A stretch of 63,179 nucleotides of DNA from Asaia bogorensis (lineage in GTDB: Bacteria; Pseudomonadota; Alphaproteobacteria; CACIAM-22H2): assembly GCA_945892765.1 (NCBI GenBank), contig CAMDDQ010000003.1, positions 1 to 63,179 of the forward strand, written 5' to 3'. Made by a program: the position numbers and the translations under genes. Within the stretch, counting starts at the first letter, position 1; every line of letters starts with the position of its first letter. The notes under the pieces were generated by a model that saw nothing but the letters and a program-made list of their open reading frames with translations, had not been told where the DNA came from and did no database searches. Below are positions 3,754 through 63,179 of the stretch, one piece after another.

Positions 3754-3757
3754 AAAC

Positions 3758-7411: not shown

Positions 7412-7421
7412 AACGAGGGCG

Positions 7422-8879: not shown

Positions 8880-8907
8880 TCCTGCGCGAAGCCGGTTCGC
8901 TGCGACC

Positions 8908-10973: not shown

Positions 10974-11021
10974 GAATTCCTTTAATTCCGAAAGACAGAG
11001 GCGCGCAGGGCGGCGCCAAGT

Positions 11022-12997: not shown

Positions 12998-13057
12998 GTT
13001 CCTACCCGAAATTTGCTGGTGAGAGTTGTCTTGCGGCGGCGGAATCGGCCGGTTCGG

Positions 13058-13612: not shown

Positions 13613-13731
13613 GGTACTTCCTTCCGTCATTGACGCGGGCCGACAATATTTCGCAAAATTGCGGCCACAACAAGACCGCGGCACGGAATGATGAACGGAC
13701 GCTGGGGGAATTGGTGGAAGGCCGTGGGGAA

Positions 13732-20266: not shown

Positions 20267-20390
20267 GAAGGCACCGATGCCAGCCCGCCGCGAAGAGGTT
20301 GAAACAATAACGATCATGCGCTAAACTAAATCTTAACCAAAGTTGAGGCAGTTTCTTGTTGCATCAACCGGTTTGAGCCGATTCTTCGCA

Positions 20391-41432: not shown

Positions 41433-41482
41433 GGAACGACACTATCGGAACATACGGTAGCCGATCAAGCCGGCCATCGCCC

Positions 41483-43299: not shown

Positions 43300-43432
43300 G
43301 CAACCATTAAGATTATCCCGTAATGCGACAACGGATGGGCCAGCAATCTATTCCCAAGTGTCGCCGCGGGCAGCGGCCAAACTATTCAACAAAGTCCGCC
43401 TATGTTAAAAGCCCGATCCAGCGCGGCCCCGC

Positions 43433-43506
43433 TGGGGGATAGTTTAACGGTAGAACTCTGGACTCTGGATCCAGGTGTCGTGGTTCGAATCCACGTCCCC
43501 CAGCCA
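43433..43506 (+). tRNA. tRNA-Gln (anticodon CTG)
   Basis: Manual cloverleaf. Acceptor TGGGGGA/TCCCCCA, D arm GTTT-AACGGTA-GAAC, anticodon arm CTGGA-CTCTGGA-TCCAG (anticodon CUG), T arm CGTGG-TTCGAAT-CCACG, discriminator G, encoded CCA. 74 nt. Confidence 0.9.
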
Positions 43507-43520
43507 ACTTGCTCGTCAGG

Positions 43521-44396
43521 CTACGGGTTCCCCTCGACCAATGTGACCGGAAGCTTCAGGTAGCGGATACCGTTGGACTCGGGTTCTGGAAATTTTCCCG
43601 CCCGAATGTTCGTCTGAATCGACGGCAACAACAGGAGCGGCGCCCCGAGTTCCGCGTCGCGAACCTTGCGCCATGCCGCGAATTCGTCGGCGCTGCGTCC
43701 CAGCAGATGTACGTTCCGCTTTTCTTCTGCCACCGTGGTCTCCCAAGCGAAGTAGTCGCGGCCCGGCGCTTTGTAGTCGTGACACATGAACAGGCGCGTC
43801 TCGTTGGGCAAGGCCAGCAGCCGATGCGCCGAGGCATAAAGCGTTCTTGCGTCACTACCCGGGAAATCGGCCCGCGCGGTCCCGTAATCAGGCATGAATA
43901 ATGTATCGCCAACAAAAACGGCATCTTCGATCTTGTAAGCCACGTCCGCCGGAGTGTGTCCGGGTACGTACAGAACCTCGATCTCGATGTTGCCGATCCG
44001 AAAGCGTTCCCCTTCCTTGAATAGACAGTCGAACTCGGACCCATCACCGGAGATGTCGGAAAGGTTGAACACCGACCGAAAAATCCTCTGGACGTCCTTG
44101 ATGTGCTCGCCGATGCCGATCTTTGCGCCGATCTTTCGCTTGAAATACGGCGCCGACGACAGGTGATCCGCATGGGCGTGAGTCTCCAGCACCCAGTCGA
44201 TCGTCACTCCCGCTGCCTTCGCGGCCGTCAGAATCCGGTCGGCGGAAACCGTCGAGGCATCACCGGAACGGTGATCGAAGTCCAGCACCGGATCGAGGAC
44301 TGCGCCCCGCATCGTTGCTCGATCCCAAATCAGATAGCTGACGGTGTTGGTCGGCTCGTCGAAAAAAGCGCGGACAGCAAAGCTTTCGCTTTTCAT
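43521..44396 (-). CDS. MBL-fold metallo-hydrolase (type II persulfide dioxygenase-like)
   Basis: ETHAHADH metal motif, PGHTPA, and FVGDTLFMPDYGTARADFPG..CHDY, as in the glyoxalase II/PDO-like subgroup. ATG at 44396. The longer ORF upstream is a read-through shadow. Confidence 0.8.
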   Translation of the reverse strand: MKSESFAVRAFFDEPTNTVSYLIWDRATMRGAVLDPVLDFDHRSGDASTVSADRILTAAKAAGVTIDWVLETHAHADHLSSAPYFKRKIGAKIGIGEHIKDVQRIFRSVFNLSDISGDGSEFDCLFKEGERFRIGNIEIEVLYVPGHTPADVAYKIEDAVFVGDTLFMPDYGTARADFPGSDARTLYASAHRLLALPNETRLFMCHDYKAPGRDYFAWETTVAEEKRNVHLLGRSADEFAAWRKVRDAELGAPLLLLPSIQTNIRAGKFPEPESNGIRYLKLPVTLVEGNP

Positions 44397-44400
44397 GTGT

Positions 44401-45117
44401 TTAGGGGATCGCCCCGGCCGCGTAGAGGATATTGACGATCTCGCCCTGCCGCCGGCTTCGCGCATGGGTGAGCGGAGTCTTGCCGTCGCGATCACCGAGA
44501 TTGACGGAGGCGCCGGCCTCGACCAGGAGCCGGACGATCTCCGAGTGACGCACTCCGCCATCTCCCAGGATGATCGCCTCCAACAACGCGGTCCAGCCGA
44601 GGTTGTTGACATGGTCGATATTGATCGCCGTCCCGAGCAGCTCGCGCACCGTCTCGACATGTCCGTAATGCGCGGCCGGTATCAGCGCGGTTCCGCCATA
44701 ACGATTGACGCTTGCAAGATCGGCACCGCTAGCGAGGGTCAAGCGCAAGATCTCGCTGTGTCCCGATGCTCCCGCCAAAAGAAAGGGACTGTCCTCGATG
44801 TTATCCTTGGCATTCACATCCGATCTGGCCGCGATCAGGACGCGTGCGGCGTCCACGTGATTGCCCTGAGTCGCGGCCAGCAACGCCGTCCGGCCACTGC
44901 CATCGCGGGCGTTCACATCGGCTCCGCCGCCGATGAGGCGCCCGACTTCCTTGGCGTCACCGCGAGCGGCCCCCGCTATCAAGGCCTGTTCCGCAGCGAT
45001 CGTCTGCGCGGCGGCTGGCTGTTCGACAGACATCCAGAGCAGAATACCCGCAATCAACCGAATTAGCCGCACCGGCCGTAGCCCGGCCTTTCCCTGCGTT
45101 GGGTGCAATCTTGCCAT
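44401..45117 (-). CDS. secreted ankyrin repeat protein
   Basis: N-terminal signal-like helix (LIRLIAGILLWMSVEQPAAAQ), then five or more ANK repeats (G.TALL.A...GH...V..L...GA..N). Stop lies 4 nt upstream of the MBL start. Confidence 0.85.
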   Translation of the reverse strand: MARLHPTQGKAGLRPVRLIRLIAGILLWMSVEQPAAAQTIAAEQALIAGAARGDAKEVGRLIGGGADVNARDGSGRTALLAATQGNHVDAARVLIAARSDVNAKDNIEDSPFLLAGASGHSEILRLTLASGADLASVNRYGGTALIPAAHYGHVETVRELLGTAINIDHVNNLGWTALLEAIILGDGGVRHSEIVRLLVEAGASVNLGDRDGKTPLTHARSRRQGEIVNILYAAGAIP

Positions 45118-45330
45118 CCGTTGAGACTACCCCATGACCTGGGGGCCTGCATGGGGCGAGTAAGAAACGATCTCGGGCAAACACGGTGACCTTAGGCTCG
45201 GCGAAGGCGTTTCTCAAGCCCCGCCCGCTCGCCGATTTGATATGTTGCCTGATAATGATGCTGCCGTGCAGTTCAGCGAGGGACCAACCGTGCCGACCGC
45301 CCTGCAGAGATCGATGATTGCGCTCGAACG

Positions 45331-45729
45331 ATGTACAGCGCGCCGGCGACGCTCGTCTTCCCCGGTATGGATCGGCCCGGCCCTTGCGTCGCCTGCGTGA
45401 CCGAACCGCGCCTCAAGACCGAGCTATGGATTCAGAGTCAGATTCGACTCTGCGACATCAATTTCATGCCGATCGCGATCCGGCGCCGCGGTGATCCCGA
45501 CGCGGGCGTAGTGCTTCTGCGGCTGTTTCGCGACCGCGATCGTTCGCTTTTGCTGAAGCGCGCCACCGAACCGCCCGGGTGGATGATCGTGGCGGGGCGG
45601 ACCGAAGTCGACGGAGAATCAGCCGAGGCCTACATCGCCCGCGAGATATCACGGGACCGCGACCTGTGGGTGGTGGAGATCGAAGACCCGAAGGAACGTT
45701 ATGAACCGGACGGGCCGGTCCAATCCTAG
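45331..45729 (+). CDS. DUF1491 family protein
   Basis: LKTELWIQSQIRLCDINFMPIAIRRRGDPDAGVVLL resembles the conserved alphaproteobacterial DUF1491 family. Start codon uncertain. Confidence 0.6.
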   Translation: MYSAPATLVFPGMDRPGPCVACVTEPRLKTELWIQSQIRLCDINFMPIAIRRRGDPDAGVVLLRLFRDRDRSLLLKRATEPPGWMIVAGRTEVDGESAEAYIAREISRDRDLWVVEIEDPKERYEPDGPVQS

Positions 45730-45746
45730 AGCCGCCACAGTCGAAC

Positions 45747-46538
45747 CTACGACGACGGCAGCTCGGCCTGTTGCTGGGCGGGAGGTAGCACGGGGTCGGC
45801 CATGCGTTTGAACCGGCCATGGGCGCGAACACTGAACGGAATACTCGCCAGGTAGGCGGCGTTGATGATGAGCAATGTCAGCCACGGTGCGCTGACGACC
45901 GCGGCGGCAAAGGCGCCTGCAACAAGCAGGACCGGCACCATGTAACGCTGCGAAATCCGAACCTGCTTCATGGAGTAGGTCGGAATCTGGCTGATCATCA
46001 GAACCGCAACGCTACAGACGACACCGCCGGTGAAGAGCGGGGCCGAGGCTAACTCGCCGCCAAATTGAAAGCTAAACATCATCGGCAAAAGGACAAGCGC
46101 AGCACCCGCCGGCGCGGGAACGCCGGTGAAAAAACCCGCCGCCCAGGGCGGCGGCGCGGGATCCCCGAGCCGTGTGTTGAACCGCGCAAGCCGCAGGGCG
46201 CAACACACAGCAAATAGTAGAACCAACGCCCAGCCAAGTCCGCCGGCGGACTGCATCGTCCACAGATACAACAACACCGCCGGCGCCACACCGAAACTGA
46301 CGAAGTCCGAAAGCGAATCGAGTTCCGCGCCGAATTTGCTCGTTCCGCCAAGCAACCGCGCCAGCCTTCCGTCGAGCCCGTCGAGTATGCCCGCGATGAG
46401 CACGGCGAAGACGCCGAATTCCCAGCGCTCTTCCAGGCCAAAACGAATGGCCGTCAGGCCCGCGCATAAGGCCAGCACGGTCAGTACATTGGGAACAATT
46501 CGGTTGATGGCCGGCCGCCGCAACCGCGAGCCGCGCAT
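45747..46538 (-). CDS. pssA: CDP-diacylglycerol--serine O-phosphatidyltransferase
   Basis: CDP-alcohol phosphatidyltransferase motif DGLDGRLARLLGGTSKFGAELDSLSD. ATG at 46538 is preferred; the ORF is open to 46619. Confidence 0.9.
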   Translation of the reverse strand: MRGSRLRRPAINRIVPNVLTVLALCAGLTAIRFGLEERWEFGVFAVLIAGILDGLDGRLARLLGGTSKFGAELDSLSDFVSFGVAPAVLLYLWTMQSAGGLGWALVLLFAVCCALRLARFNTRLGDPAPPPWAAGFFTGVPAPAGAALVLLPMMFSFQFGGELASAPLFTGGVVCSVAVLMISQIPTYSMKQVRISQRYMVPVLLVAGAFAAAVVSAPWLTLLIINAAYLASIPFSVRAHGRFKRMADPVLPPAQQQAELPSS

Positions 46539-46569
46539 CCGAAGCCTTACGGGGCGGCGGGCAAGCACT

Positions 46570-47292
46570 TCAGCGAACCTCTCCGGCGCGCGCCGGTTCG
46601 GCGGAGGTGAGATCGGCAAGCACGGTTTCGCCGCCGATCACGCGCTGGCCCACAAGGACGAGCGGCGCAACGCCGGTCGGGAGATACAGATCGACGCGGC
46701 TACCGAATCGGATCATGCCATAACGCTGGCCCGAACGAACCGTCTGCCCTTCGGTGAGAGTACACAATATCCGGCGCGCGATCAGCCCCGCAACCTGGAC
46801 AAACGCCAGATCTCGTCCGTCGGCCAGGGCCAGCCGTACGGCCATGCGTTCGTTGGCCTCGCTGGCCTTATCGAGTGAAGCATTGATGAAACGGCCCGGG
46901 CGATAGGCCAAGGTTTTGACGACGCCATCGGCCGGGACACGGTTAACGTGAACGTCGAACGTGCTGAGGAAAATGCCTATGCGCGTGCGTGGTTCGCTCC
47001 CCATCCCGATCTCTTCCGGGGGAGGCGCGGCGGCGACGCTGACGACCCTGCCATCGCCGGGGCTGACGACGAGCCCTGGACGTGTGGGTGTCACCCTTTC
47101 GGGATCGCGAAAGAAATAAACACACCAGCCGGTGACGATCGCCCCGATCCATCCAATGGAGACATCGATCAGCGCCAGCATGATCGTCACCAGGACGGAA
47201 ATGGCGATGAACGGCCACCCTTCGGGATGAACGGGAGCAATCACTAATTTCAAAGTCTGCTGCACGGAAATGGCTGGAAACTCCCTAGTCAT
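46570..47292 (-). CDS. psd: phosphatidylserine decarboxylase proenzyme
   Basis: Short-form Psd with the MIRFGSRVD (G-S cleavage) motif, upstream of pssA. Confidence 0.9.
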   Translation of the reverse strand: MTREFPAISVQQTLKLVIAPVHPEGWPFIAISVLVTIMLALIDVSIGWIGAIVTGWCVYFFRDPERVTPTRPGLVVSPGDGRVVSVAAAPPPEEIGMGSEPRTRIGIFLSTFDVHVNRVPADGVVKTLAYRPGRFINASLDKASEANERMAVRLALADGRDLAFVQVAGLIARRILCTLTEGQTVRSGQRYGMIRFGSRVDLYLPTGVAPLVLVGQRVIGGETVLADLTSAEPARAGEVR

Positions 47293-47343
47293 GGAACGAT
47301 CGTCGGCATGCGGAGCCTAACGACGCAGCTGAAAAAATCCAGG

Positions 47344-48714
47344 TTAGTTGACTTGAGGTACGATGAAGACTTGTCCGGGATATATTATGCTCGGGTCGCG
47401 AATCTGATCGCGGTTGGCCTGATAGATAGTGGTGAAGCGAACACCCTGGCCATAGGATCGGCGGGCGATTCGCCACAAGCTATTTCCAGGCTGAACGATG
47501 ACGCGGCCCTCGCTGGGCAGTTGGAGCGAAAGATCAGCGCGGACAAACGGTACTTCGAGACGCGCAACCACCCTCCCGCCCGGCGAGATCTGATCGACAC
47601 GCAAGGTATGCACACCCGGGTCCACGGGCTCCTGCGGTGTGAGCGTCCAATCGCCCACGATACTACTCTCCGTGCGGCCGACGGGTTGGTTGTCGACATA
47701 GACTTGAACCGATTCGCCAGGAGATGACCGTCCGCCGAAGACTACGTTCCCGGCGTCGTCGTAATCGACCGTGTCGAGATTGAGCACTGGTCCTTGGGCG
47801 TTTGTGGAGGGGGCCGGCTCGACCGGCGGCGCCTGTAGGACAGTGGAACGGCCCGCTCCTTCGCGCGGAGCCAGCAACGCCAATGGAGGAGTTGGCCGCG
47901 CGGCGGCTTCTCCGGCCAGATCCCTTCCCGGTTGCGGCACCGCCAAAACGACGACGTCATCGGAGCGTTGCGCCGGCCGGCCGGGCAATTCGGCCTTCAG
48001 GCTCAACTCGCGGTTGCCAGGCGCGAGGCGTTTGTCAGGCACGCCAACCCACTCTCCACGCGTATCGGCTTTGGCCCGCGCAATCTCGGTTTCGCTGTCA
48101 TACACAGTGACAATCGAGTCGGGTGCGGCACGACCAGCGATGACCGCCTCTCCCAAGGGGCTGACCCGCACGACGTCAAAGGATGGATTGGCTGGAGCGG
48201 GCGGTGCCAGTTGAGGCACCGCCGCGGGAGCCGACGCGGCTGGACTTGCCGGTGGCGTGACAACCGGAGGAGGCGGCGTCGCCGGCTCGGGCAGAGCCGC
48301 CTGGGCCGTCGCGGGCGGCCTGGATGTGGATGTGGTCGGCGGGGTCGGGACGGGTGCAGGCCGCACCTCGGCGCCAAGCGACGGCGGAATTGGTGCGGGC
48401 ACCGCCGCCGGTGGTGGCGTCAGGGCGGGAATAGTGACCGGCGATTGTGTGGCGGGAGCCTGGGTTGCGAAGGCGGGGTTCGTGTCCGGGGGCGGGCCGA
48501 CAACAGGCGGCGCCACAGGCTCCGGCGATGCGCGCGCTGCGGTGGGTGGATCTGCGGTGGCCGTCTCGATCGCGGGAGGCGCAATCCTTCGCGGCGTTTC
48601 GGCCAGCGGCACAGGGCGCCAGTCCTCGTCGCGCAACTGAATCCACGCCAAGATCGTCGCCGCAGCGACAAGAGCGGAGCCTAGTACGACGACGACCAGC
48701 GGTCGGTTGGTCAA
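47344..48714 (-). CDS. LysM peptidoglycan-binding domain protein (Pro/Ala-rich)
   Basis: N-terminal TM helix, long P/A/T-rich low-complexity linker, C-terminal LysM (GNSLWRIARRSYG..YQANRDQIRDPSIIYPGQVFIVP). Confidence 0.85.
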   Translation of the reverse strand: MTNRPLVVVVLGSALVAAATILAWIQLRDEDWRPVPLAETPRRIAPPAIETATADPPTAARASPEPVAPPVVGPPPDTNPAFATQAPATQSPVTIPALTPPPAAVPAPIPPSLGAEVRPAPVPTPPTTSTSRPPATAQAALPEPATPPPPVVTPPASPAASAPAAVPQLAPPAPANPSFDVVRVSPLGEAVIAGRAAPDSIVTVYDSETEIARAKADTRGEWVGVPDKRLAPGNRELSLKAELPGRPAQRSDDVVVLAVPQPGRDLAGEAAARPTPPLALLAPREGAGRSTVLQAPPVEPAPSTNAQGPVLNLDTVDYDDAGNVVFGGRSSPGESVQVYVDNQPVGRTESSIVGDWTLTPQEPVDPGVHTLRVDQISPGGRVVARLEVPFVRADLSLQLPSEGRVIVQPGNSLWRIARRSYGQGVRFTTIYQANRDQIRDPSIIYPGQVFIVPQVN

Positions 48715-48785
48715 CTCAACATCCTCTCACGCCGCCCACGCAATTACGGTAGTACGCAATATCGCGGGGTGCAACGTCCATTGAG

Positions 48786-48822
48786 GAAAAAACAAGCGCG
48801 AAGAGTCTCCCCTTCGCGCTTG
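48786..48822 (-). terminator. rho-independent terminator downstream of the cytochrome pseudogene
   Basis: CAAGCGCGAAG-8 nt-CTTCGCGCTTG stem followed on the minus strand by a T6-7 run (plus-strand GAAAAAA at 48786-48792). Confidence 0.7.
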
Positions 48823-48852
48823 CCCGAAACCGAAGTATCTCTCGAAAAAAAC

Positions 48853-49317
48853 CTATCTGCTCCGGAAAGTCTCGCGGCAACCGCCGCAGGCTTGCTGAGT
48901 GGCGGTGATCTGGGCCTTTAGCGCGTTTTCGTCGGTGCCCTTGGCAGCTACGATCAACTTCGCCGATTCCGCCTCGAACTTTTTCGCGGCGGCCACGAAG
49001 TCATCCCTCTTGGACCAGATTTCGGGCTTGGCACGAGTCTCCGCGCCGGCGTTAGACCCGGCCGGAAAGAGAGAAGGAATCTGCATCCTAACGGCGTTGA
49101 GGGCCGTCGCAAATTCGACAAATCCGCCTTTGAACGTCACGGTGCCCTTGGCGAATTCGCCCATTGCACCCATGTGCGACGTGTTAGCCGTCATCAGCGA
49201 CTTCCGCTATTTGATCACATTGGCCGGTTCATCGGCGGCCTGGACCATGCCCGCGACGCCGGTTAAGCAAAAAGCGAGCCCGGCAATAATCGCCGTCTTA
49301 TTCACACGATACTTCAC
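48853..49317 (-). pseudogene. class II cytochrome c (c556/c'-like) pseudogene: in-frame TAG plus CxxCH-to-CxxCR
   Basis: GTG 49317 with upstream GGAGGAAAG opens a signal peptide, VKYRVNKTAIIAGLAFCLTGVAGMVQAADEPANVIK. TAG at 49209-49207 falls where both paralogues have Tyr (IAYRR / IRYRQ). The frame then continues RKSLMTANTSHMGAMGEFAKG... The C-terminal motif reads CGGCRE instead of CxxCH. Confidence 0.75.
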
Positions 49318-49476
49318 GGTCTTTCCTCCATGGATATTCCGACAGGGCATTCCCAGTCGACTGCACGCAATTTGAACACGTTGCCATCGACACTATTATG
49401 AACACATCGCGACCGAAATTATTCCCAACCAACCAGGGCGGGGGCTCAAATCACAACGTCTTGATCGCGAAAAGGA

Positions 49477-49502
49477 AAGCGGCGAGCCAATAGGCTCGCC
49501 GC
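49477..49502 (-). terminator. rho-independent terminator candidate downstream of cytochrome gene 49554-50042
   Basis: AGCGGCGAGCC-aata-GGCTCGCCGCT, an 11-bp stem followed on the minus strand by TTCCTTTTCG. Confidence 0.65.
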
Positions 49503-49553
49503 TCTGCCAGACCCTCGGCCCGCCACAGCAGGGCCGAGCACTGTCGAAGTTTA

Positions 49554-50042
49554 CTATTTCGCCGCGGGTGGCAGCGGCTTGCGGAAGGGCTGATGGCAGC
49601 CGCCGCAGGCCTGCGCGACCTTTCCGATCTGGTCCTTCATTGCGGCCTCATTGCCGGCCGCGGCCACTTCGGCCAGCTTCGTACCTTCTTCGCCCAGGCG
49701 TTTTGCCGCGGCCAAGAAATCCGCATTTTTCTGCCAAATCTCGGGTTTAGCGTTGGTCCTGCCGGTATCGGTGCCCGCGGGAAACATTCCGGGGAGCTCG
49801 AGGGATGTTCCAACCAACGCGGCCGCGTAGGCTTTGATCGTTTCCTTTGTCACAATCGTGACCTCGCCCTTGGCAAAGGCGTTGAGGGCCGCCAGATAGT
49901 CCGCGTTCCCCTTCATAGCTTCCTGCCGATAGCGAATCATGTCCAGGGGGCGTGCCTGGGCGAACGCCTCGGCCGCGATTCCAGCGGCCGCGAGTGCAAC
50001 GCCACCGATCATCATGCCGATCGCCAAATTGCGTCTCATCAA
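49554..50042 (-). CDS. class II cytochrome c (cytochrome c556/c'-family)
   Basis: Signal peptide, four-helix-bundle-type sequence, single C-terminal heme site ACGGCHQPFR, N-terminal Met candidate ligand (YRQEAMKG). Confidence 0.8.
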   Translation of the reverse strand: MMRRNLAIGMMIGGVALAAAGIAAEAFAQARPLDMIRYRQEAMKGNADYLAALNAFAKGEVTIVTKETIKAYAAALVGTSLELPGMFPAGTDTGRTNAKPEIWQKNADFLAAAKRLGEEGTKLAEVAAAGNEAAMKDQIGKVAQACGGCHQPFRKPLPPAAK

Positions 50043-50103
50043 ACTCCTCCCATCTTCGAATGCGCCAAATATTGAACCAAGCGAGTCGCGGTTACCCGCG
50101 ACA

Positions 50104-51048
50104 TCATCTCGGCCGCTCTATCTTGTGGTCGATCGGGGGCAGCGAAAGGATGTATTTGGACATCGCCGTCCGATCCGCGTCTGTCATCTTGCTTGTGCTT
50201 TCGCGCACGACCTCGGCCATAAGGCCGCCTACGACGTCACCGCCCGGTACCGCGCCAGTCTTCAACATGTAGGCGAAATCGATGTCGTCCCATTCGCCAA
50301 TGCCGGTCGCCTCATGTGGCGTGATATTCGGGGCCATCTCGCCTTCCGGCCCGTCGATCGATCCAGCCATCCACCTGCTGCGATCCATTCCGCCCAACAG
50401 GTTGCGCGGCGTATGGCATTCGGCGCAATGGCCGAGCGCCTCGGTCAGATACGCGCCCCGGTTCCATTCCGCGGATTTCGCGGGATCAGGCTTGTATACG
50501 CCTTCCTTGAAGAAAAGCATTTTCCAGCCGATCTGCAGGAATCGGAGATTGAAGGGGAAGCCGATGTCGTGAGGTTTGTTAGCCTGCGCGACCGGCGGCA
50601 GCGAAAAGATATAGGCCTTCAAATCTTTGATGTCCTGATCGGTCATCAAAGTAAACGACGTGTAGGGGAAGACCGGAAAATAGTGCGATCCGTTGGGCGA
50701 AATGCCCTCGCGCAAGGCGCGGGTGAAGTCGGCATCAGTCCACTTGCCGATGCCGTTCACCGGGTCCGCGGTGATATTGGGGCTGTAGAAGGTTCCAAAG
50801 GGCGTGGGCAGAGCCCGGCCGCCGGCCAGTTGGGCGCCCTTGTTCTTGGTATCGGTGTGGCAGGGCGCGCAATCGGCGGCCCTGAAGACATATTCCCCGC
50901 GCTTGATCGCATCGGCATTGGCCTGCGCCGCGGCCGGCGAGGCCGCCGCGAGCATCCCGCCCGCGATCACGAGCAGGGAGGCGAGGCCATTCAGGAGCAC
51001 GTTCGCCGGGGTGGCGGTCATCGGATCACCGTTTTGCATCGGGCCCAA
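50104..51048 (-). CDS. diheme c-type cytochrome (dehydrogenase cytochrome-c-subunit-like)
   Basis: Signal/TM segment and two CxxCH sites (CAPCH, CAECH). Resembles the cytochrome subunits of membrane-bound dehydrogenases. Confidence 0.8.
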   Translation of the reverse strand: MGPMQNGDPMTATPANVLLNGLASLLVIAGGMLAAASPAAAQANADAIKRGEYVFRAADCAPCHTDTKNKGAQLAGGRALPTPFGTFYSPNITADPVNGIGKWTDADFTRALREGISPNGSHYFPVFPYTSFTLMTDQDIKDLKAYIFSLPPVAQANKPHDIGFPFNLRFLQIGWKMLFFKEGVYKPDPAKSAEWNRGAYLTEALGHCAECHTPRNLLGGMDRSRWMAGSIDGPEGEMAPNITPHEATGIGEWDDIDFAYMLKTGAVPGGDVVGGLMAEVVRESTSKMTDADRTAMSKYILSLPPIDHKIERPR

Positions 51049-51054
51049 CGCGAC

Positions 51055-51546
51055 CTAACGATTAATGCGGAACGGCTCGTGGCAGATCGCGCAGGCGCGG
51101 CTCATGTTTTCGATCTCGCTGGTGAGCACCTGGTTATCACTACCCTTCACCGCGGCCAGCAATTTTTCGCCGGCGCCCACGACCTGGACGACAATCTTGT
51201 TGAACTCGTCGGTTTTCTGCCAAATGGCCGGATCGGCGATGGTGTCGCCGCCCTTTTCCGTGCCCTTTGGGAATACGCTCGGGATTTCCTTGGAGCCCGC
51301 GATGATGGCCTCGGTCCAACCGGCGAAACCCGCCTTGGAGGTTGTCCGCCCCTTCGCGAAGCTCGCCATCGCGTCGAGGTGGTGGCCCATGGCGAGCATC
51401 ACCGCCCGACGATAAGCAATGATTTTCTCCGGCTCGTTGGCCGCGGACGCACTGAAATCGGCGCCGAAAAGCGCCGCCAGGCCAATGCCGCCAATGATCA
51501 AACCCTTGGTAACGCTCCGTCGCATCAATTCCTCCCGTCGTCGCAA
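51055..51546 (-). CDS. class II cytochrome c (cytochrome c556/c'-family)
   Basis: Paralogue of 49554-50042. Signal peptide, AYRRAVMLAMG, C-terminal CAICHEPFR. ATG at 51525 is an alternative start. Confidence 0.8.
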   Translation of the reverse strand: MRRREELMRRSVTKGLIIGGIGLAALFGADFSASAANEPEKIIAYRRAVMLAMGHHLDAMASFAKGRTTSKAGFAGWTEAIIAGSKEIPSVFPKGTEKGGDTIADPAIWQKTDEFNKIVVQVVGAGEKLLAAVKGSDNQVLTSEIENMSRACAICHEPFRINR

Positions 51547-51714
51547 GCCAAATCTACGCTCCCAGACAGGACTTTTTGATCCAGTCTGGTTCGGCGCAAG
51601 TGAAGTCTGTATAGCAGAGCCCTAGGCAGGGTGGAAGCCCCAGCGCCGTGGACTATCCACCGCAGGCGGCGGCACCCGCGCAGGTCGTCATTTTCATGGT
51701 GTAGGACCCCGCAC

Positions 51715-52299
51715 ATGGCCGAAATCCAGTCCTTGTGCGTTTTCTGTGGATCCTCAAATTCAGGGCCAGCGGCGCACCGCGACGCCGCGGCGCAATTTGG
51801 TACGGTGCTCGCGCATTCCGGCATCCACCTGGTCTTTGGCGGCGGCCGCGTCGGCCTCATGGGGGTCGTGGCCGATGCCGCACTGGCGGCCGGCGGGCGT
51901 GTGACCGGGGTCATACCCAAATTCCTGGAGGTCATCGAAGTCGGGCATCCCGGCGCCACGCAATTGCTGGTGGTCGACAACATGCACACGCGAAAACGCA
52001 AGATGTTCGATATGTCCGAGGCGTTCGTTATCCTGCCGGGCGGCCTGGGGACGTTGGACGAGATGTTCGAAGTCTTGACCTGGAAATACCTCGGCCTCCA
52101 CGCCAAGCCGATCGTCATCGCCGATTTCGACGGCTATTGGCAGCCCCTGCTGACGCAAATCTCGAGCCAGATACAAAACGGCTACACCGCGACTGAAGCT
52201 CAAAAAATATTTTCAGTGGTCGAAAGGGTCGAGGATATTCTGCCCGCGATTGAATCTGCGCGCGTCACACTCGCCGCCCCGGCATCCGAACGGCTGTGA
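51715..52299 (+). CDS. LOG family protein (TIGR00730 Rossmann-fold nucleotide hydrolase)
   Basis: [28 protein letters not shown] motifs. ATG at 51715. Confidence 0.85.
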
Positions 52300-52352
52300 G
52301 CCAGGCGGCCCGTGCGGCCGAGACTCTTCGATTCCGCAACGGGAGTACAGAT

Positions 52353-53567
52353 ATGAAAAAGATCAAGGTCGCCAATCCCATCGTCGACGTCGATGGCGAC
52401 GAAATGACGCGCATATTCTGGAAGATGATCAAGGATCGATTGATCCTCCCCTATCTCGACATCGACGTGAAATATTTCGACCTGGGCATTGAAAATCGCG
52501 ATGCCACCGAAGATCGGGTCACGGTCGAAGCCGCCGAGGCGATCCAAAAATACCGGGTCGGCGTGAAATGCGCGACCATTACGCCCGACGAGACACGCGT
52601 GACCGAATTCAAACTCAAAAAGATGTGGAAATCGCCGAACGGCACGATCCGCAACATACTCGACGGCACCGTGTTTCGCGAACCGATCATCTGCAAGAAC
52701 GTCCCGCGCCTTATCACGACCTGGACACAACCCATCGTCATCGGCCGCCACGCTTTCGGCGATCAATATCGCGCCACCGATTTTCGGGTGCCCGGTCCCG
52801 GCAAGCTGACGATGACGTTCACGCCGACCGGCGGCGGCAAACCGGTGCAATACGACGTGTTCGATTTCCCCAGCTCCGGCGTCGCGCTCGGCATGTACAA
52901 TTTGGACGACTCAATTCGCGGCTTCGCCCGCGCCTGCTGCAACTACGCGCTGAACCGCGGCTGGCCGCTCTATCTCTCGACCAAGAACACCATCCTCAAA
53001 GCCTATGACGGACGCTTCAAGGACATCTTCCAAGAGGTGTTCGAAAAGGAATTCACCGGCCCCTTCGCGGCGAAGAAGTTGAGCTACGAACATCGGCTGA
53101 TCGACGACATGGTGGCGACGGCGCTCAAGGTCAGCGGCGGTTTTGTCTGGGCCTGCAAGAATTATGACGGCGACGTGCAATCGGATTCGCTGGCTCAAGG
53201 GTTCGGATCGCTTGGCCTGATGACGTCGGTGCTGCTAACGCCCGACGGCAAGGTAGTGGAGGCGGAGGCCGCCCACGGCACCGTCACGCGCCATTACCGC
53301 GAGCACCAGCAGGGACGCGAGACCTCGACCAACCCGATCGCCTCGATCTTCGCTTGGACGCGGGGGCTCGCCTATCGCGGCGAGTTCGACGGGACGCCCG
53401 AGGTCAAGCGTTTTGCCGACACGCTGGAAAAGGTCTGCATCGACACCGTCGAAGCCGGCGACATGACAAAAGACCTCGCCGTGTTGGTCGGGCCGAAGCA
53501 GAAATGGCTGACGACGCGTCAGTATTTCGACAAGGTCGATGCAAATTTGAAAAAGATCTTGGCGTAA
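52353..53567 (+). CDS. icd: NADP-dependent isocitrate dehydrogenase (homodimeric, eukaryote-like type)
   Basis: [21 protein letters not shown]..., [17 protein letters not shown] and NYDGDVQSD motifs. 404 aa. Confidence 0.95.
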
Positions 53568-53576
53568 GGTGGAATT

Positions 53577-53598
53577 GGGCGGGCCTCTCGGCCCGCCC
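53577..53598. terminator. GC-rich hairpin between convergent icd and alaS (bidirectional terminator candidate)
   Basis: GGGCGGGCC-tctc-GGCCCGCCC, a perfect 9-bp stem lying between the two stop codons. Confidence 0.65.
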
Positions 53599-53606
53599 TA
53601 AGAAAA

Positions 53607-56261
<2,655 letters not shown>

Positions 56262-56491
56262 GGCTTCGTCCTTGAGGAAAACCGCAGGCGCACCCGGAAC
56301 TTGGGGCCCTCAAGGCTCCCGCATCCGTGCGGCCGGTCCGGCATCGCCGTGTTGATGTAGCCTGGGGCCGGAGATGTGTCCAGAAGGCGCTCGGCGGATC
56401 GGACCCGCGCACGCGTAAGGGGTCCCGATTTGTCGCGTGACTTAAGGCCTCGGACGGCGACCGTCCAAGGCCGCGCACGCCGAAAGGAACA

Positions 56492-56515
56492 GGGCCGGGG
56501 GATTGGCCCCGGCCC
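56492..56515 (-). terminator. rho-independent terminator candidate downstream of recA
   Basis: GGGCCGGGG..CCCCGGCCC stem about 10 nt after the recA stop. On the minus strand it is followed by TGTTCCTTTCGG. Confidence 0.6.
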
Positions 56516-56524
56516 CGATTTTGT

Positions 56525-57598
<1,074 letters not shown>

Positions 57599-57651
57599 GA
57601 TGCACCTTTCCTTATTTCACAGGGTTTTAAGTGATGCAACGTAAGGCCAAT

Positions 57652-57666
57652 GTACATGATTTGTTC
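57652..57666. promoter_or_regulatory. candidate alphaproteobacterial SOS (LexA) box upstream of recA: GTAC-N7-GTTC
   Basis: tGTACATGATTTGTTC lies 54-68 nt upstream of the recA ATG. It resembles the GTTC-N7-GTTC direct-repeat LexA motif, with one half-site deviating (GTAC). Confidence 0.5.
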
Positions 57667-57708
57667 AAATATTTTCCCGCCCGGAGGCGGTTGCGTTGAG
57701 ACGGGATT

Positions 57709-57723
57709 GTACACATTTTGTTC
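57709..57723. promoter_or_regulatory. second candidate SOS (LexA) box upstream of recA: GTAC-N7-GTTC
   Basis: tGTACACATTTTGTTC is a near copy of the first box, 57 nt further upstream, in the same AT-rich recA leader. Confidence 0.5.
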
Positions 57724-57761
57724 TCACATACAAGCATTACAAAATTTTGGTTTTAGCCGGC

Positions 57762-58600
57762 CTACCCAAGGGCTTCCTTGACCGCGGTGGCGAGCACCTC
57801 GAGCGTGAAGGGTTTGAGGAGGAAATTCACATTCTTCAGATGCTCCAGGCGCTTACGTAGGGATTCCTCAGCGTAGCCGGAATGCAGATGACCTTGAGTT
57901 TGGGATGGGTTTCACGCGCATTGCGGATCAATGTCGGCCCATCCATCTGCCGCATGACGACATCGGTTACGAGTAGATCGATGCCCGCGCCATGTTGGGC
58001 GAGCAGTTCCAGCGCACCTTCGCCGCTTTCGGCCTCGATCACCCGGTAGCCCTTGTTGCGCAGAGCGCGGACGCTGAACAGGCGCACGACGTCTTCGTCC
58101 TCGACCAACAAAACGGTGCCGACTCCGGTTATATCCTTGGCTGGCGTGGAAACCGGCATGGCCGGTCGGGCGACTTCGGGCGGTGCCGCGTGGCGCGGGA
58201 GAAGGATACTGAAATTAGCCCCCTCGCCCGGCGCGCTCTCGACATAAACGAGCCCACCGGTTTGGCGAACGATGCCGTAGACCGTCGACAGACCGAGCCC
58301 GGTGCCGGAGCCGACCGCCTTGGTCGAAAAGAACGGCTCGAAGATGCGGCCGACGATCTCCTTGGGAATGCCCGTGCCGGTATCCACGACCTCGATCAAC
58401 ACATAATCCCCCGCCGGCACCGATTCGGAGCCCCGTCGCAATGGCTCCGTCACCCTCCGATTGCTGGTGCGGATCGTGAGCGTACCGCCACTGGCCATGG
58501 CGTCGCGGGCGTTAACGGCGAGATTGATGATGACCTGCTCGAATTGGCCTTGGTCGACCTTGATCTGGCCGAGGCTCGCCCCGCCCTTCGCCAGAACGTG
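57762..58600 (-). pseudogene. CckA-like hybrid sensor histidine kinase/response regulator remnant (N-terminal sensor and HisKA missing; 1-nt frameshift near 57880)
   Basis: Only the HATPase_c domain (QFEQVIINLAVNARDAM, DTGTGIP, GTGLGLSTVYGIVRQTGG) and the receiver (VLLVEDED..LLVTDVVM) are present. After KVICI the frame yields PATLRNPYVSAWSI*, whereas a neighbouring frame continues SGYAEESLRKRLEHLKNVNFLLKPFTLEVLATAVKEALG* to TAG at 57764-57762. Confidence 0.75.
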
Positions 58601-59458
58601 GTCGTCGAAGGCGCCACCATTCGCCTCGGCGATCTGTTCGACGATGCCGGCGCCAAGGCCGGCGAGCCGGTGGCCGCCGCCCCCGCCCCCGGACGTAAGA
58701 TTTTGTTCGAGGCAAGTTGGTTGAGTGACATCGCGCGGACCTACCGACTGTCCTGGCGTCCGGCAAGCCGCTATGACCGAACCGTCGTCGAACGCGCGGG
58801 CCGCCGCTTCGACGCGGCCGAGATCACCGGCCGCCTAAGGCTCGCCCTGGTCGCCGCCGGTGCCCCCGGCGATTCTGAAATCGAAATCGCCAACCGCGAT
58901 CTCGAAATGTTCGTCGCCATCGAGGCCCCGGCCACGATCGAGATCCAAAATCTTTCCTTCGATCGCAACACCAGCCGCTTTTCCGCGGTTGCCGCCGTCG
59001 GCGGCGATCATCCGAGCGCGGCGCGCACGGCCGTCAACGGCCGCATTTATCGCACGGCGCAGGTTCCCGTGTTGCGGCGCCCAATCGGCGCCGGCGACGT
59101 CATCGCCAAGTCCGACATTGAAATGGTGAGGATACGGGAGGAACGCCTTCGCCCGGGAACAATCGTCGATGCTTCGGATTTGATTGGTTTCACGCCGTGC
59201 CTGCGCGTGCGGGCCGGAGACCCGGTGCGCGAGGACGAGATCCGTCCACCGATCCTTGTCGCCAAGAACAGCCTGGTGACCATCGTTCTGCGAACCAACA
59301 GTATGATCCTGACGGTTCAAGGCAAGGCGCTCGAAGACGGGGCCAAGAACGACGTCATCCAAGTCATGAACCTGCAAAGCAAGAAGATCCTCGACGGGCA
59401 GGTCGTGGAATCGGGCACCGTCACGGTGGCCGGCCAGTCAATCCTAGCCGCCCAATGA
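58598..59458 (+). CDS. flgA: flagellar basal-body P-ring formation chaperone FlgA, lacking native start and signal peptide
   Basis: VVVEGATIRLGDLFDDAG..AAAPAPGRK.. and the C-terminal SAF/FlgA domain (VLVAKNSLVTIVLRTNSMILTVQGKALEDGAKNDVIQVMNLQSKKIL). No signal peptide: upstream in-frame sequence is antisense to the kinase remnant. GTG 58598 is only a possible surrogate start. Confidence 0.7.
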   Translation: MVVEGATIRLGDLFDDAGAKAGEPVAAAPAPGRKILFEASWLSDIARTYRLSWRPASRYDRTVVERAGRRFDAAEITGRLRLALVAAGAPGDSEIEIANRDLEMFVAIEAPATIEIQNLSFDRNTSRFSAVAAVGGDHPSAARTAVNGRIYRTAQVPVLRRPIGAGDVIAKSDIEMVRIREERLRPGTIVDASDLIGFTPCLRVRAGDPVREDEIRPPILVAKNSLVTIVLRTNSMILTVQGKALEDGAKNDVIQVMNLQSKKILDGQVVESGTVTVAGQSILAAQ

Positions 59459-59502
59459 CCCGCGAATTTTCAGGCCAAGTCCCGGCCCCGAAGGAGACTC
59501 CA

Positions 59503-59947
59503 ATGTCCCGCACCCGCCTTTCCCGTTTGATGTCTCGCGTTTTGATCGCCGTCATGGCCATTGCGCCGGGAGCATGCACGGGCACACTCGACCGCCTCGC
59601 GCAGGTCGGCGACCAACCGCCGTTGACGCGAATTCAGAATCCGCAGGCAGTTCCTGGCTATCAGCCCGTTTCGATGCCGATGCCGCCGCCCTTGCCCAAC
59701 GATCGCGGCAGCAATTCCCTGTGGCGGCCGGGCGCGCGGGCGTTCTTCAAGGATCAACGCGCGAACCAAGTCGGCGATATCGTCACTGTCTTGATCACGA
59801 TGAGCGAGAACGCGTCATTGAGCAACTCCACGGAACGCACGCGGACGAACACCGAGAGCGCGGCGATGCCCAAGCTCCTCGGCTATGAAGGAAAAGAGCT
59901 GCGGAAAGTGCTCCCGGAAGCGCTCGACCCAACGAACCTCATTGGCC
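59503..59947 (+). pseudogene. flgH: flagellar L-ring protein FlgH, 5' fragment (interrupted by IS)
   Basis: AAGGAG RBS at 59491, ATG 59503, signal peptide ending IAPGAC, then SLWRPGARAFFKDQRANQVGDIVTVLI. FlgH similarity stops at the IS left end. Confidence 0.85.
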
Positions 59948-59977
59948 TGCTGCCGGTTTTGTGGACACCGAGTTAGG
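59948..59977. repeat. IS left terminal inverted repeat (TGCTGCCGGTTTTGTGGACACCGAGTTAGG)
   Basis: Matches the reverse complement of 61153-61182 at 20/21 terminal positions and about 24/30 overall. Preceded by the GGCC target duplication at 59944-59947. Confidence 0.85.
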
Positions 59978-60000
59978 TGTTTTGATGGAACCGGAGGTAG

Positions 60001-60294
60001 GTGATGGAGAGACGGAAGTTTACGCGCGAGTTCAAGCTTGAGGCAGTGAAGCTGATCAGGGATCGCGGGGTGGGCTATGCGCAAGCCTCGCGCGATCTGG
60101 GTGTTCATCCGACGGTGCTGCGGAGCTGGGTGAAGGCGCTTGCCGATGACCCACAGCAGGCATTCCCGGGCTACGGTCAGATGAAGCCCGAGCAGGCGGA
60201 GATCGCGCGGCTGAAGCGCGAAGTGATCAAGCTGAAGGCCGAACGGGACATCCTAAAAAAAGCCGCGGCCTACTTCGCGAAGGAATCGATGTGA
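60001..60294 (+). CDS. IS3 family transposase OrfA (HTH)
   Basis: RRKFTREFKLEAVKLI..GVGYAQASRDLGVHPTVLRSWVK plus a leucine-zipper-like tail ending KKAAAYFAKES, the classical IS3 OrfA layout. Confidence 0.9.
   Translation: MMERRKFTREFKLEAVKLIRDRGVGYAQASRDLGVHPTVLRSWVKALADDPQQAFPGYGQMKPEQAEIARLKREVIKLKAERDILKKAAAYFAKESM
60255..60262 (+). promoter_or_regulatory. programmed -1 ribosomal frameshift slippery site (AAAAAAAG) of the IS3 element
   Basis: A7G run near the end of orfA. orfB (60291-61157) is in the -1 frame relative to orfA and overlaps it. Confidence 0.75.
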
Positions 60295-61157
60295 GGTTCG
60301 CCTTCATCGCGAAGCATCGAGGGATATGGCCGGCGGGATGGATGTGCGGGGCGCTCGGTGTCTCGCGGGCTGGCTACCATGCCTGGCTGATACGGCCACG
60401 CAGCCGGCGCAGTCGCGACGACGAGGAACTGGGCACGAAGGTGCGGTCGAGCTTCGTGGCGAGCGATCGGACCTACGGGGCCAGGAGGGTGTGGCACGAC
60501 CTGCTTGCCGAGGGCGTGCCGTGCGGGTTGCATCGGATCGAGCGGCTGATGCGGCGCCAAGCCCTGCGGGCGAGGCCACGCCGACGCCGCCTGCCGTCCG
60601 ACACCGGTGAGCGATCCACCAGCGCCATTGCCGCGAACGTGCTGGACCGTACCTTCGAGGCACCGGCTCCCAACCGCAAATGGATCGCCGACTTCACCTA
60701 TATCTGGACGGCGGAGGGCTGGCTCTACGTGGCGGCCGTGGTCGATCTCTTCTCCCGCCGCGTGGTCGGCTGGTCGATGAGCGCGACCATGACGGCGCAG
60801 CTCGTCACCGACGCCCTCATCATGGCGATCTGGCGGCGGGGCAAGCCCGACGCGCTGCTGCACCACTCCGATCGCGGCAGCCAGTACACCAGCGAACAGT
60901 TCCAGCGCCTGATGGCCGATCACGGCGTCACCTGCTCGATGAGCCGCTCGGGCAACGTCTGGGACAACGCGGCGATGGAGAGCTTCTTCTCTTCATTGAA
61001 GATCGAGCGCACGGCGCGCAAGACCTATCGGACACGGGACGAAGCAAAGGCCGATGTGTTCGATTGCGTCGAACGCTTCTACAATCCGAAACGGCGCCAC
61101 TCGACCATCGGCTATGTCAGTCCAATGGAGTTCGAAATGAAGGCTGAATTAGCTTAA
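60291..61157 (+). CDS. IS3 family transposase OrfB (DDE integrase core; normally made as OrfAB fusion)
   Basis: rve/DDE core: WIADFTYI (D), HHSDRGSQYTS (D), NAAMESFFSSLK (E), and a C-terminal YNPKRRHSTIGYVSPMEFE. Confidence 0.9.
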   Translation: MRFAFIAKHRGIWPAGWMCGALGVSRAGYHAWLIRPRSRRSRDDEELGTKVRSSFVASDRTYGARRVWHDLLAEGVPCGLHRIERLMRRQALRARPRRRRLPSDTGERSTSAIAANVLDRTFEAPAPNRKWIADFTYIWTAEGWLYVAAVVDLFSRRVVGWSMSATMTAQLVTDALIMAIWRRGKPDALLHHSDRGSQYTSEQFQRLMADHGVTCSMSRSGNVWDNAAMESFFSSLKIERTARKTYRTRDEAKADVFDCVERFYNPKRRHSTIGYVSPMEFEMKAELA

Positions 61158-61182
61158 CCTAGTGTCCACGAAACCGGCAGCA
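61153..61182. repeat. IS right terminal inverted repeat
   Basis: Reverse complement TGCTGCCGGTTTCGTGGACACTAGGTTAAG pairs with the left IR. Followed by the GGCC direct repeat at 61183-61186. Confidence 0.85.
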
Positions 61183-61518
61183 GGCCACATCGACCTCAGC
61201 AGCGATTCAGGCAGCAAGGGCACCGGAACCGTCACGCGAAGCGAAGCGCTGACGTTGCGCGTTGCCGCAATCATCACGCAGGTGCTTCCGAACGGCAATT
61301 TGGTCCTCCAGGGACACCAGGAAGTGCGCGTAAATTTCGAAGCGCGCGTGCTGGAACTCAACGGTGTCGTGCGACCGCAGGATATCGCGGCCGCCAACAC
61401 CATTACCTACGACAAGATCGCCGAGGCCCGCATCGGTTATGGCGGCCGCGGACAGCTCACCGACGTCCAGCAGCCGCGTTATGGCCAGCAGGTCCTCGAT
61501 ATTCTCTTCCCGTTCTGA
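61183..61518 (+). pseudogene. flgH: flagellar L-ring protein FlgH, 3' fragment
   Basis: GHIDLSSDSGSKGTGTVTRSEALTLRVAAIITQVLPNGNLVLQGHQEVRVNFEARVLELNGVVRPQDI..IAEARIGYGGRGQL..ILFPF is the conserved FlgH C-terminal core. Confidence 0.85.
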
Positions 61519-61581: not shown

Positions 61582-62001
61582 TTAGTCGTCCCGGTTGGTG
61601 CGTTCGAGGCGTTCGTGCCGTTCCTGAGCCTCGATTGTCATCGTGGCGATCGGGCGGGCCTCGAGGCGGCGCACGTTAATCGGCTCGTCGGTGATCTCGC
61701 AATAGCCATAAGTGCCGTCTTCGATGCGGCGAAGAGCGGAGTCGATCTTGGCGATTAGTTTGCGTTCACGATCCCGAGCGCGGAGTTCGAGGGCCCGGTC
61801 GGTCTCCGCCGAGGCACGGTCGGCAAGATCAGGCGCCGCCACGGTGTCTTCCTGCAGGTGTTGCAAGGTCTCGGTTGAATCGCGCAGCAATTCGGCCCGC
61901 CAGCGCACAAGCTTCTGGCGGAAGTATTCGAGCATCGTCGGATTCATAAACGGCTCGTTGTCGGACGGCCGGTAATTTGGATTGAGAGTTGGCGCCGTCA
62001 T
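61582..62001 (-). CDS. dksA: RNA polymerase-binding transcription factor DksA (zinc-finger cysteines largely absent)
   Basis: Coiled-coil with the acidic tip DRASAETD, and C-terminal GTYGYCEITDEPINVRRLEARP. Only one of the four canonical Cys residues is retained. ATG at 62001. Confidence 0.85.
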   Translation of the reverse strand: MTAPTLNPNYRPSDNEPFMNPTMLEYFRQKLVRWRAELLRDSTETLQHLQEDTVAAPDLADRASAETDRALELRARDRERKLIAKIDSALRRIEDGTYGYCEITDEPINVRRLEARPIATMTIEAQERHERLERTNRDD

Positions 62002-62823: not shown

Positions 62824-63018
62824 ATGGTCCAACCCTGGAAAAACAAAAGGATGTTCGCCGCAGCGGTAGTTGGGCTCACGGCGATCTTCGGGACTTGCGC
62901 CGCGTCGGCCGCTTCGCGAATCAAGGACATCGCGGATTTTCAGGGCGTCCGCACGAATCAACTCATCGGTTACGGTCTGGTCGTCGGTCTGAACGGTGTC
63001 CGTCGTCAATGGATTTGA
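62824..63018 (+). pseudogene. flgI: flagellar P-ring protein FlgI, N-terminal ~58-codon fragment
   Basis: Signal peptide, then [28 protein letters not shown], the conserved FlgI N-terminus. The expected TGD... is replaced by VRRQWI* from about 62997. Confidence 0.8.
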
Positions 63019-63071
63019 GACAACGGGCGCGCTGAGTTAACGGAGGCTGCGGCTCATCTGGTGGGTTGATC

Positions 63072-63179
63072 TTATGCCGCTTGATCGCGATGGATCAAGC
63101 GGCGCTGCTGGATGGTCTGTCGTTTGATTCGGTTGCGTTCGAGCAGGATGGTTTGGGCCCTGCCGAGATAGACGTCGGC
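63072..63179 (-). other. 3' end of an unidentified ORF entering from beyond the right window edge
   Basis: Open frame ..ADVYLGRAQTILLERNRIKRQTIQQRRLIHRDQAA* ending at TAA 63074-63072. The opposite strand is also open (MDQAALLDGLSFDS..), so both strand and identity are unresolved. Confidence 0.25.

Follow-up and report, generated by a model that had tools for sequence, protein, structure and literature searches.

A 63,179-nt contig filed under Asaia bogorensis (CAMDDQ010000003.1 of GenBank assembly GCA_945892765.1; 62% G+C), hereafter the window, holds a point at which two truncated genes meet head to head: the 3′ end of cckA, encoding the kinase CckA, on the minus strand, and the 3′ end of the flagellar gene flgA on the plus strand. 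We read this junction as the scar of a chromosomal deletion of about 16-17 kb in an alphaproteobacterial supercluster of recA, cckA and flagellar genes, and as part of a wider loss of motility, with a probability of about 85%. The reading is carried by the limits of similarity on either side of the junction, by the gene order of relatives and by the state of the same locus in related lineages.

Two truncated genes meet head to head

Upstream of an intact recA, the minus strand encodes the C-terminal part of a CckA-type kinase in two frames (Table 1). The first segment comprises HATPase_c from just before its N-box (..SLGQIKVDQGQFEQVIINLAVNARDAM..), the linker and most of the receiver domain; the second supplies the receiver end (SGYAEESLRKRLEHLKNVNFLLKPFTLEVLATAVKEALG) and a stop codon at 57762-57764. 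When the frame was repaired, the translation of this stub (57762-~58582) matched the Pfam families HATPase_c (E = 5e-22) and Response_reg (E = 1.5e-20) but neither HisKA nor PAS. The NCBIfam CckA equivalog models NF046020 and NF046026 are covered over their C-terminal third only: positions 578-867 of 868 in the Brucella CckA model (E = 4.8e-108, 362 bits, below the cut-off of 1000 bits) and positions 400-676 of 678 in the Caulobacter model (307 bits, cut-off likewise not reached). With the full-length CckA of Aliidongia (797 aa), the tblastn alignment begins at residue 518, at position 58582, and changes frame at 57881/57857. The stub has no transmembrane, PAS or DHp (HisKA) part and no phospho-accepting histidine, and the DNA beyond its 5′ edge is flgA on the opposite strand.

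Adjacency to recA identifies the remnant as the positional cckA orthologue, because 36 of 80 recA-anchored loci (recA 75-85% identical to that of the window) have cckA immediately upstream of recA. The stub shares with Rhodospirillales-like CckA proteins its CA and receiver domains (60-67% identity) and its place directly upstream of recA and beside flagellar genes, but it lacks about 65% of the protein. The order HATPase_c then receiver and the syntenic position of CckA are retained, with the receiver interrupted as encoded, and the HisKA, PAS and membrane parts are gone. The interruption is the loss of a single nucleotide between KVICI and SGY, where ATTTCC has become ATTCC: the window reads ATT CCG GCT instead of the expected ATT TCC GGC, at a site where CckA homologues have ..KVI(C/F)ISGYxE.... 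A further change in the receiver is P→R in the conserved motif DVVMPxMDG.

On the plus strand, the translation of the flgA stub from about 58583 begins ALRQNVVVEGATIRLGDLF.. and stops at 59458. Its C-terminal part matched ChapFlgA (PF13144; E = 2.4e-31, 108.7 bits against a cut-off of 23.8) and TIGR03170 (127 bits against a cut-off of 54.65); the tblastn alignment of a 312-aa FlgA homologue starts at residue 25, at window position 58586. By their E-values, the matches of both stubs lie far beyond chance. A hydrophobic N-terminal leader is present in all 22 aligned FlgA homologues and absent from the stub, where the in-frame upstream sequence is an acidic antisense translation of cckA. Compared with FlgA, a periplasmic chaperone of P-ring assembly, the stub keeps the body and the C-terminal SAF/ChapFlgA part, and flgH, dksA, fliX and flgI follow downstream as in relatives, but it is without a start codon, a signal peptide, the operon promoter and its partners flgF and flgG. 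In homology searches, neither partner was found anywhere in the window, leaving the operon context flgF-flgG-flgA-flgH incomplete.

Similarity to cckA is convincing as far as ..SLGQIKVDQ (S codon, 58574-58576) and similarity to flgA from ALRQNVVVEG (A codon, 58583-58585), so the two head-to-head stubs meet within about 10 nt; they have the same codon register on opposite strands. We found no filler DNA, repeat or insertion sequence (IS) end at the junction (58574-58585), and G+C content is even across it. The locus has the marks of a pseudogene scar: truncation relative to orthologues, further independent lesions and a structure that is not conserved as such in relatives.

An initial annotation made from the letters alone had described two 5′-truncated genes abutting within 10-20 nt at 58,590-58,600, and a 1-nt deletion in the receiver near 57,880. 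The homology and domain searches agree with it on the truncations (the last third of cckA, and flgA from about codon 25), on the domains (HATPase_c, Response_reg and ChapFlgA/SAF matched, no HisKA), on the abutment and on the missing base, at 57880/57881. The junction is likewise real, and lies about 10-20 nt to the left of the place proposed.

Two open reading frame (ORF) calls at the flgA stub are a side observation on annotation. Gene callers place a 488-aa 'FlgA' at 57992-59458 (+) in the window and a 302-aa version (58550-59458, +) in a second assembly, L005, described below. In both, the N-terminal extension translates the antisense strand of the cckA stub. This is a trap for annotation, and a public collection lists the 488-aa product as a protein. 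Both calls, along with the 220-aa 'kinase' called on the other strand, deserve marking as pseudogenes.

Removing one segment from the conserved gene order reproduces the window

To describe the order in relatives we used, besides the recA-anchored loci, 80 fliP-centred loci and 33 loci retrieved by flgA similarity with a six-sequence FlgA alignment as seed. Written in the orientation of the window, the conserved order is recA(-) and cckA(-); flhB, fliR, fliQ, fliE, flgC and flgB(-); fliO and fliP(+); a gene for a TPR protein, cheZ, cheY, an MgtE_N-like gene, a DUF6468 gene, fliM and fliL(-); and flgF, flgG, flgA and flgH(+). On the flgA side, flgF-flgG-flgA-flgH(+), dksA-fliX(-) and flgI follow one another in 32 of the 33 loci, the remaining one being a contig of 2.9 kb in which flgA is matched only weakly and in part; loci that extend further have fliL-fliM..cheY-cheZ-TPR protein(-), then fliP, upstream of flgF. 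On the cckA side, fliP is followed by flgB-flgC-fliE-fliQ-fliR-cckA in more than 50 loci, with recA next in about half of them, and flhB was seen between fliR and cckA in locus L197. The two halves are joined as well: cckA and the fliM/fliL or flgF/flgG side lie on one stretch in 31 of the 80 fliP-centred loci, all oriented as in the window except L207 and L253, with recA also detected in 14 of the 31. Loci joining both halves include those of Caulobacter, Devosia and many Rhodospirillales-like genomes.

Equivalents of both breakpoints could be placed in 13 loci, where they lie 14.3-19.5 kb apart (median 16.7 kb) with about 20 flagellar and chemotaxis genes between them. Homology searches of the window found no trace of these intervening genes. 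Removing the segment leaves the 3′ part of cckA(-) beside the 3′ part of flgA(+), matching the window exactly. We also considered an inversion, which would instead join the 3′ part of flgA to the 5′ part of cckA, unlike the window, and rejected it. The geometry of the deletion that was first proposed from the junction therefore stands, as does the loss of DNA from between the two genes; the implied pair of divergent neighbours does not, given that cckA and flgA are never adjacent in intact relatives. The proposal that both promoters had been removed fails for flgA. Because flgF and flgG precede it in 32 of the 33 loci, flgA is never the first gene of its operon and has no promoter of its own to lose.

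The complete arrangement, recA-cckA-flhB-fliRQ-fliE-flgCB, fliP, TPR-cheZY-fliML, flgFGAH, dksA-fliX and flgI, is conserved across many alphaproteobacterial orders (loci L204-L283 and L006-L196), with cckA lying physically within the flagellar supercluster, at its edge. Two other candidates were set aside. A CckA-like match upstream of flgF in one locus (L094) is a 29%-identical paralogue, not cckA. Proteins of 292-301 aa with HATPase_c and REC domains, encoded on long contigs, do not form a natural family, as the loci show a cckA split into separate PAS, HisKA and CA-REC calls. In L197 (ENA ERZ28668984 contig_10, 1200-13700), which belongs to an unrelated genome, cckA is called as PAS (421 aa), HisKA (84 aa) and CA-REC (292 aa) products, and five different transposase genes lie around the flagellar-cckA block. 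The split there represents either another decaying cckA or indel errors of long-read assembly.

A second assembly shares the junction and related lineages are more eroded

A second assembly, L005 (ENA ERZ27280297, MEGAHIT, 31 kb), is 99.984% identical to window positions 47836-60706 (12,871 nt), with two mismatches and no gaps. It has the same junction, the same missing base and an identical 220-aa frameshifted ORF.

A sister lineage, ERZ1305449, is known from the gene tables and protein sequences of two contigs (79,144 and 28,932 nt). Its order is fliX, dksA, flgH, then a 212-aa kinase ORF 76 nt away, recA and alaS; the gene tables of these contigs contain no flgA, and fliX encodes 84 aa, compared with 139 aa in the window. 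The kinase fragment (P0122) starts later than the stub in the window, its N-box is gone and it does not carry the frameshift of the window. It has lesions of its own, namely a 17-residue in-frame deletion in the receiver (RNKGYRVIEAESGEGAL) and a G→S change in the conserved VGSGTGLGL (G2) box. In a third lineage, GCA_947445225.1, 89.5% nucleotide identity to window positions 40013-57735 ends just past the stop codon of the stub, and no cckA remnant is found upstream of recA before the contig ends. Three related lineages in three states at one locus make the pattern expected of a dead region being whittled away. Relatives with the same junction and full-length products, which would have counted against the initial annotation, did not appear; those found are more decayed instead.

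In the third lineage, the position of the stub upstream of recA is occupied by an unrelated 172-aa ORF without a Pfam match (L199, 1-593). A strong hairpin lies at the far end of this ORF, just before its start, where the contig ends.

Members of the clade occur in at least seven samples or assemblies. We searched a collection of 5.8 billion proteins with both stubs: besides the sister fragment, none fell between 69% and 100% in identity to the kinase stub, and besides the window's own ORF none was more than 54% identical to the FlgA stub. The closest FlgA relatives are only 50-54% identical, indicating that the lineage is poorly sampled. Homology searches revealed no intact cckA in the window, and the gap in the protein collection argues against a conserved intact cckA in the clade; with assemblies as fragmentary as these, it is no proof of absence.

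A probable single deletion and its alternatives

In the scenario that we favour, a deletion would have run from about codon 518-560 of cckA to about codon 24 of flgA, taking with it the export gate, proximal rod, switch and chemotaxis genes together with the sensor, PAS and DHp parts of CckA. The remaining CA-REC stub, having no histidine and no evident promoter or start, would be nonfunctional, and its frameshift would have been acquired later; the FlgA stub, without a secretion signal and operon promoter, would be nonfunctional too. Illegitimate recombination is our default assumption for the mechanism. Across the clade, flagellar motility and the kinase that regulates flagellar genes would have been lost stepwise, the deletion being one step, with further deletions and IS3 insertions still eroding the leftovers. 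The deletion may be older than the divergence of the three lineages. We presume that the organism is non-motile and infer that its genome has no intact cckA elsewhere.

Several points weigh against this reading. The ancestral order is taken from relatives whose FlgA is just 50-60% identical and whose CckA is 60-67% identical. The searches turned up no close relative in which the cluster is intact, and scanning species-representative genomes directly with the FlgA stub gave no close relative at all; the deleted length is accordingly an estimate. L005 may share or overlap the read set of the window and is perhaps not a fully independent confirmation. A second cckA or flagellar gene set may lie elsewhere in the genome, of which the window alone was examined. 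Finally, the kinase stub shows no clear excess of substitutions: it differs at 2 of the 120 alignment columns that are at least 95% conserved (P→R being one of the two), which is within the range of intact homologues. Its 88% identity to the sister fragment had at first looked like accelerated evolution; this was rejected, as amino acid identity outside the 17-residue gap is 94.7%. The third lineage and the window share 96.6% identity in AlaS, 99.2% in RecA and 91% in cytochrome c; to judge by cytochrome c, both relatives stand at about the same distance from the window. Because the substitution rate gives no clear signal, the case for a pseudogene rests on truncation and indels.

Several successive deletions, perhaps after an earlier lesion that abolished motility, might also have led to the present junction as the last of a nested series. 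The related lineages lend this some plausibility, as the junction of the sister lineage is different and more extensive, leaving flgH close to a shorter stub, the third lineage has lost the stub entirely and a separate internal deletion appears to have fused motA to motB. Yet no filler, IS or fragment of the roughly 20 intervening genes is left at the junction, and a single event is more parsimonious, although the data do not separate the two. We infer one event in a clade that accumulates nested deletions, and consider the stepwise route possible, if rather doubtful. It is very unlikely that the 16-17-kb segment was relocated, with most flagellar genes surviving at another locus. Such a move would fit with our view being confined to the window, but the moved segment would hold a 3′-truncated cckA and the first 24 or so codons of flgA, so that both genes would stay broken. 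Moreover, the IS3 insertions in flgH and flgI and the motA'-'motB lesion would be unexpected if the apparatus were still in use, and the protein collection holds no FlgA or CckA of the clade besides the stubs.

We regard an assembly chimera or a sequencing error, at the junction or at the missing base, as highly improbable. In favour of one, the contig is metagenomic and ends in a repeated IS, and the missing base falls in a short T run. Against an artefact, L005 reproduces 12.9 kb around the junction gap-free with both mismatches elsewhere, a diverged sister lineage likewise has, on two contigs, a cckA stub unusually placed next to flgH and recA, and neither a step in G+C nor a repeat marks the join. 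That the stubs are functional short proteins, an orphan CA/receiver protein from an internal start and an FlgA from TTG 58550 or ATG 57992, is hardly credible. Gene callers do predict ORFs of 220 aa for the kinase and 302 or 488 aa for FlgA, the 212-aa ORF of the sister lineage is uninterrupted and changes at conserved sites are few. However, the kinase ORF of the window begins within the N-box, has no DHp histidine and contains a frameshift in its receiver; the sister ORF is short of 17 receiver residues and altered in its G2 box, and the third lineage has nothing. FlgA works in the periplasm, yet its candidate N termini here are acidic, derive from the antisense strand of cckA and include no signal peptide. 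Other short CA-REC ORFs in databases proved to be full cckA genes called in fragments. A search of 57500-59600 gave no sigma-70-like promoter, which is weak evidence. A more specific role for the CckA stub, having served for a time, or still serving in the sister lineage, as an orphan receiver, phosphate sink or ATP-binding protein acting on a remaining ChpT-CtrA, seems to us extremely unlikely. If true, it would explain the small number of substitutions at conserved positions.

Probable loss of CckA together with motility

The RecA protein of the window is closest to those of Aliidongia and Azospirillum (82-85% identity), by which the lineage appears to be Rhodospirillales-like; a clustered cytochrome from a related genome carries the label Rhodospirillaceae. 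In Rhodospirillales, ctrA is dispensable for growth and flagellar genes are the conserved targets of the pathway, and cckA, chpT and divL were detected in just 27-36% of genomes (PMC8116508). In Rhodospirillum rubrum, all three genes of the phosphorelay show an association with flagellar genes (PMC12363192). Because the CckA pathway is dispensable for viability and mainly controls motility in this order (PMC8116508), joint loss of cckA and flagellar genes is expected biology rather than the loss of an essential regulator, and the significance that the initial annotation attached to the loss of cckA was overstated. The lineage studied here resembles those Rhodospirillales without detectable cckA, chpT and divL (PMC8116508) in apparently having no functional CckA and in flagellar genes being the main targets of the pathway, but differs in that a visible remnant displays the deletion and the flagellar co-loss directly.

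The finding is ordinary gene decay and involves no new mechanism or system. It offers a clean example of a motility apparatus and a linked regulator lost by what we read as one cut through the recA/cckA/flagellar supercluster, which is conserved from Rhodospirillales to Caulobacter, with stages of erosion visible in three lineages. It also adds a natural case to those suggesting that the CckA-ChpT-CtrA relay is linked to motility and that bacteria outside the dimorphic orders can do without it. Motility genes have been lost by deletion, IS insertion and frameshift in bacteria that are non-motile or restricted to a host, such as Shigella, Yersinia pestis and Bordetella pertussis. The locus described here has much in common with these, including a large deletion, IS elements with target duplications, frameshifts and sister-specific erosion; unlike them, it belongs to an uncultured Rhodospirillales-like alphaproteobacterium in which the linked kinase was deleted too.

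Other motility lesions and features of the window

Table 1 Features at and around the cckA-flgA junction
Feature	Position	Strand	Evidence
alaS	53607-56261	-	ORF
recA, intact	56525-57598	-	ORF; 75-85% identity to recA of 80 loci kept
cckA remnant, segment 3′ of frameshift	57762-57880	-	Frame translation; tblastn, Aliidongia CckA residues 755-792 at 57881-57768; 56-homologue alignment
1-nt deletion in receiver domain	57880-57881	-	Sequence; frames; homologue alignment
cckA remnant, segment 5′ of frameshift	57881-58582	-	Pfam; NCBIfam; tblastn, CckA residues 518-762 at 58582-57857; synteny
Probable deletion junction, cckA-derived/flgA-derived	58574-58585		Similarity limits on both sides
flgA remnant, ~residues 25-312 of homologues	58583-59458	+	Pfam ChapFlgA/SAF; TIGR03170; tblastn; alignment
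flgH 5′ part, residues 1-~145, lipoprotein signal intact	59504-59942	+	tblastn; Pfam FlgH on L005
IS3-family element splitting flgH	59943-61187	+	Inverted repeats; Pfam HTH_Tnp_1, rve/HTH_21
flgH 3′ part, residues ~140-251	61188-61518	+	tblastn
dksA, apparently intact	61582-62001	-	tblastn, 75% identity over 139 aa; Pfam
fliX, apparently intact, 139 aa	62122-62541	-	Pfam FliX
flgI 5′ fragment	62824-62997	+	tblastn, FlgI residues 15-62 only; similarity stops at 62997
Second, different IS3-family element end interrupting flgI	62998-63179		blastn; contig ends inside

Downstream of the flgA stub, flgH is split by an element with the hallmarks of the IS3 family: 33-nt inverted repeats (TG..CA) that are 88% complementary, orfA at 60001-60294 and orfB at 60291-61157, and a 3-bp target duplication, CAT, at 59940-59942 and 61188-61190. 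This element is apparently intact and is also present in L005, whose assembly breaks inside it. The neighbouring dksA belongs to the conserved block of flgH, dksA-fliX and flgI. All 182 nt of the sequence that interrupts flgI are 72-77% identical to places in 141 alphaproteobacterial plasmid records, and two of the eight matches listed are annotated as IS3 family transposase; that the contig ends inside this element suggests that it is multi-copy in the genome.

Far from the junction, a 180-aa ORF at 20343-20885 (+) fuses MotA_N positions 2-49 of 91 to OmpA-domain positions 48-94 of 98. It resembles a motA'-'motB fusion left behind by an internal deletion, and would then be a second deletion scar in motility genes. 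The housekeeping genes of the window look intact, as does rnc between era and lepB. Rfam and tRNA scans of the window returned tRNA-Gln only. Two gaps suggested by G+C at third codon positions (GC3) were dismissed: that at 18.4-20.3 kb holds an intact 862-aa ORF, penicillin-acylase-like by reading of its translation, and that near tRNA-Gln holds ordinary genes.

Three cytochrome c' (Cytochrom_C_2) genes and one c-type cytochrome gene lie at 48853-51546 (-). Between the sister lineages, their products are 88-93% identical, compared with 97-99% for RecA, AlaS and isocitrate dehydrogenase, and one copy has called lengths of 113, 135, 154 and 173 aa across assemblies.

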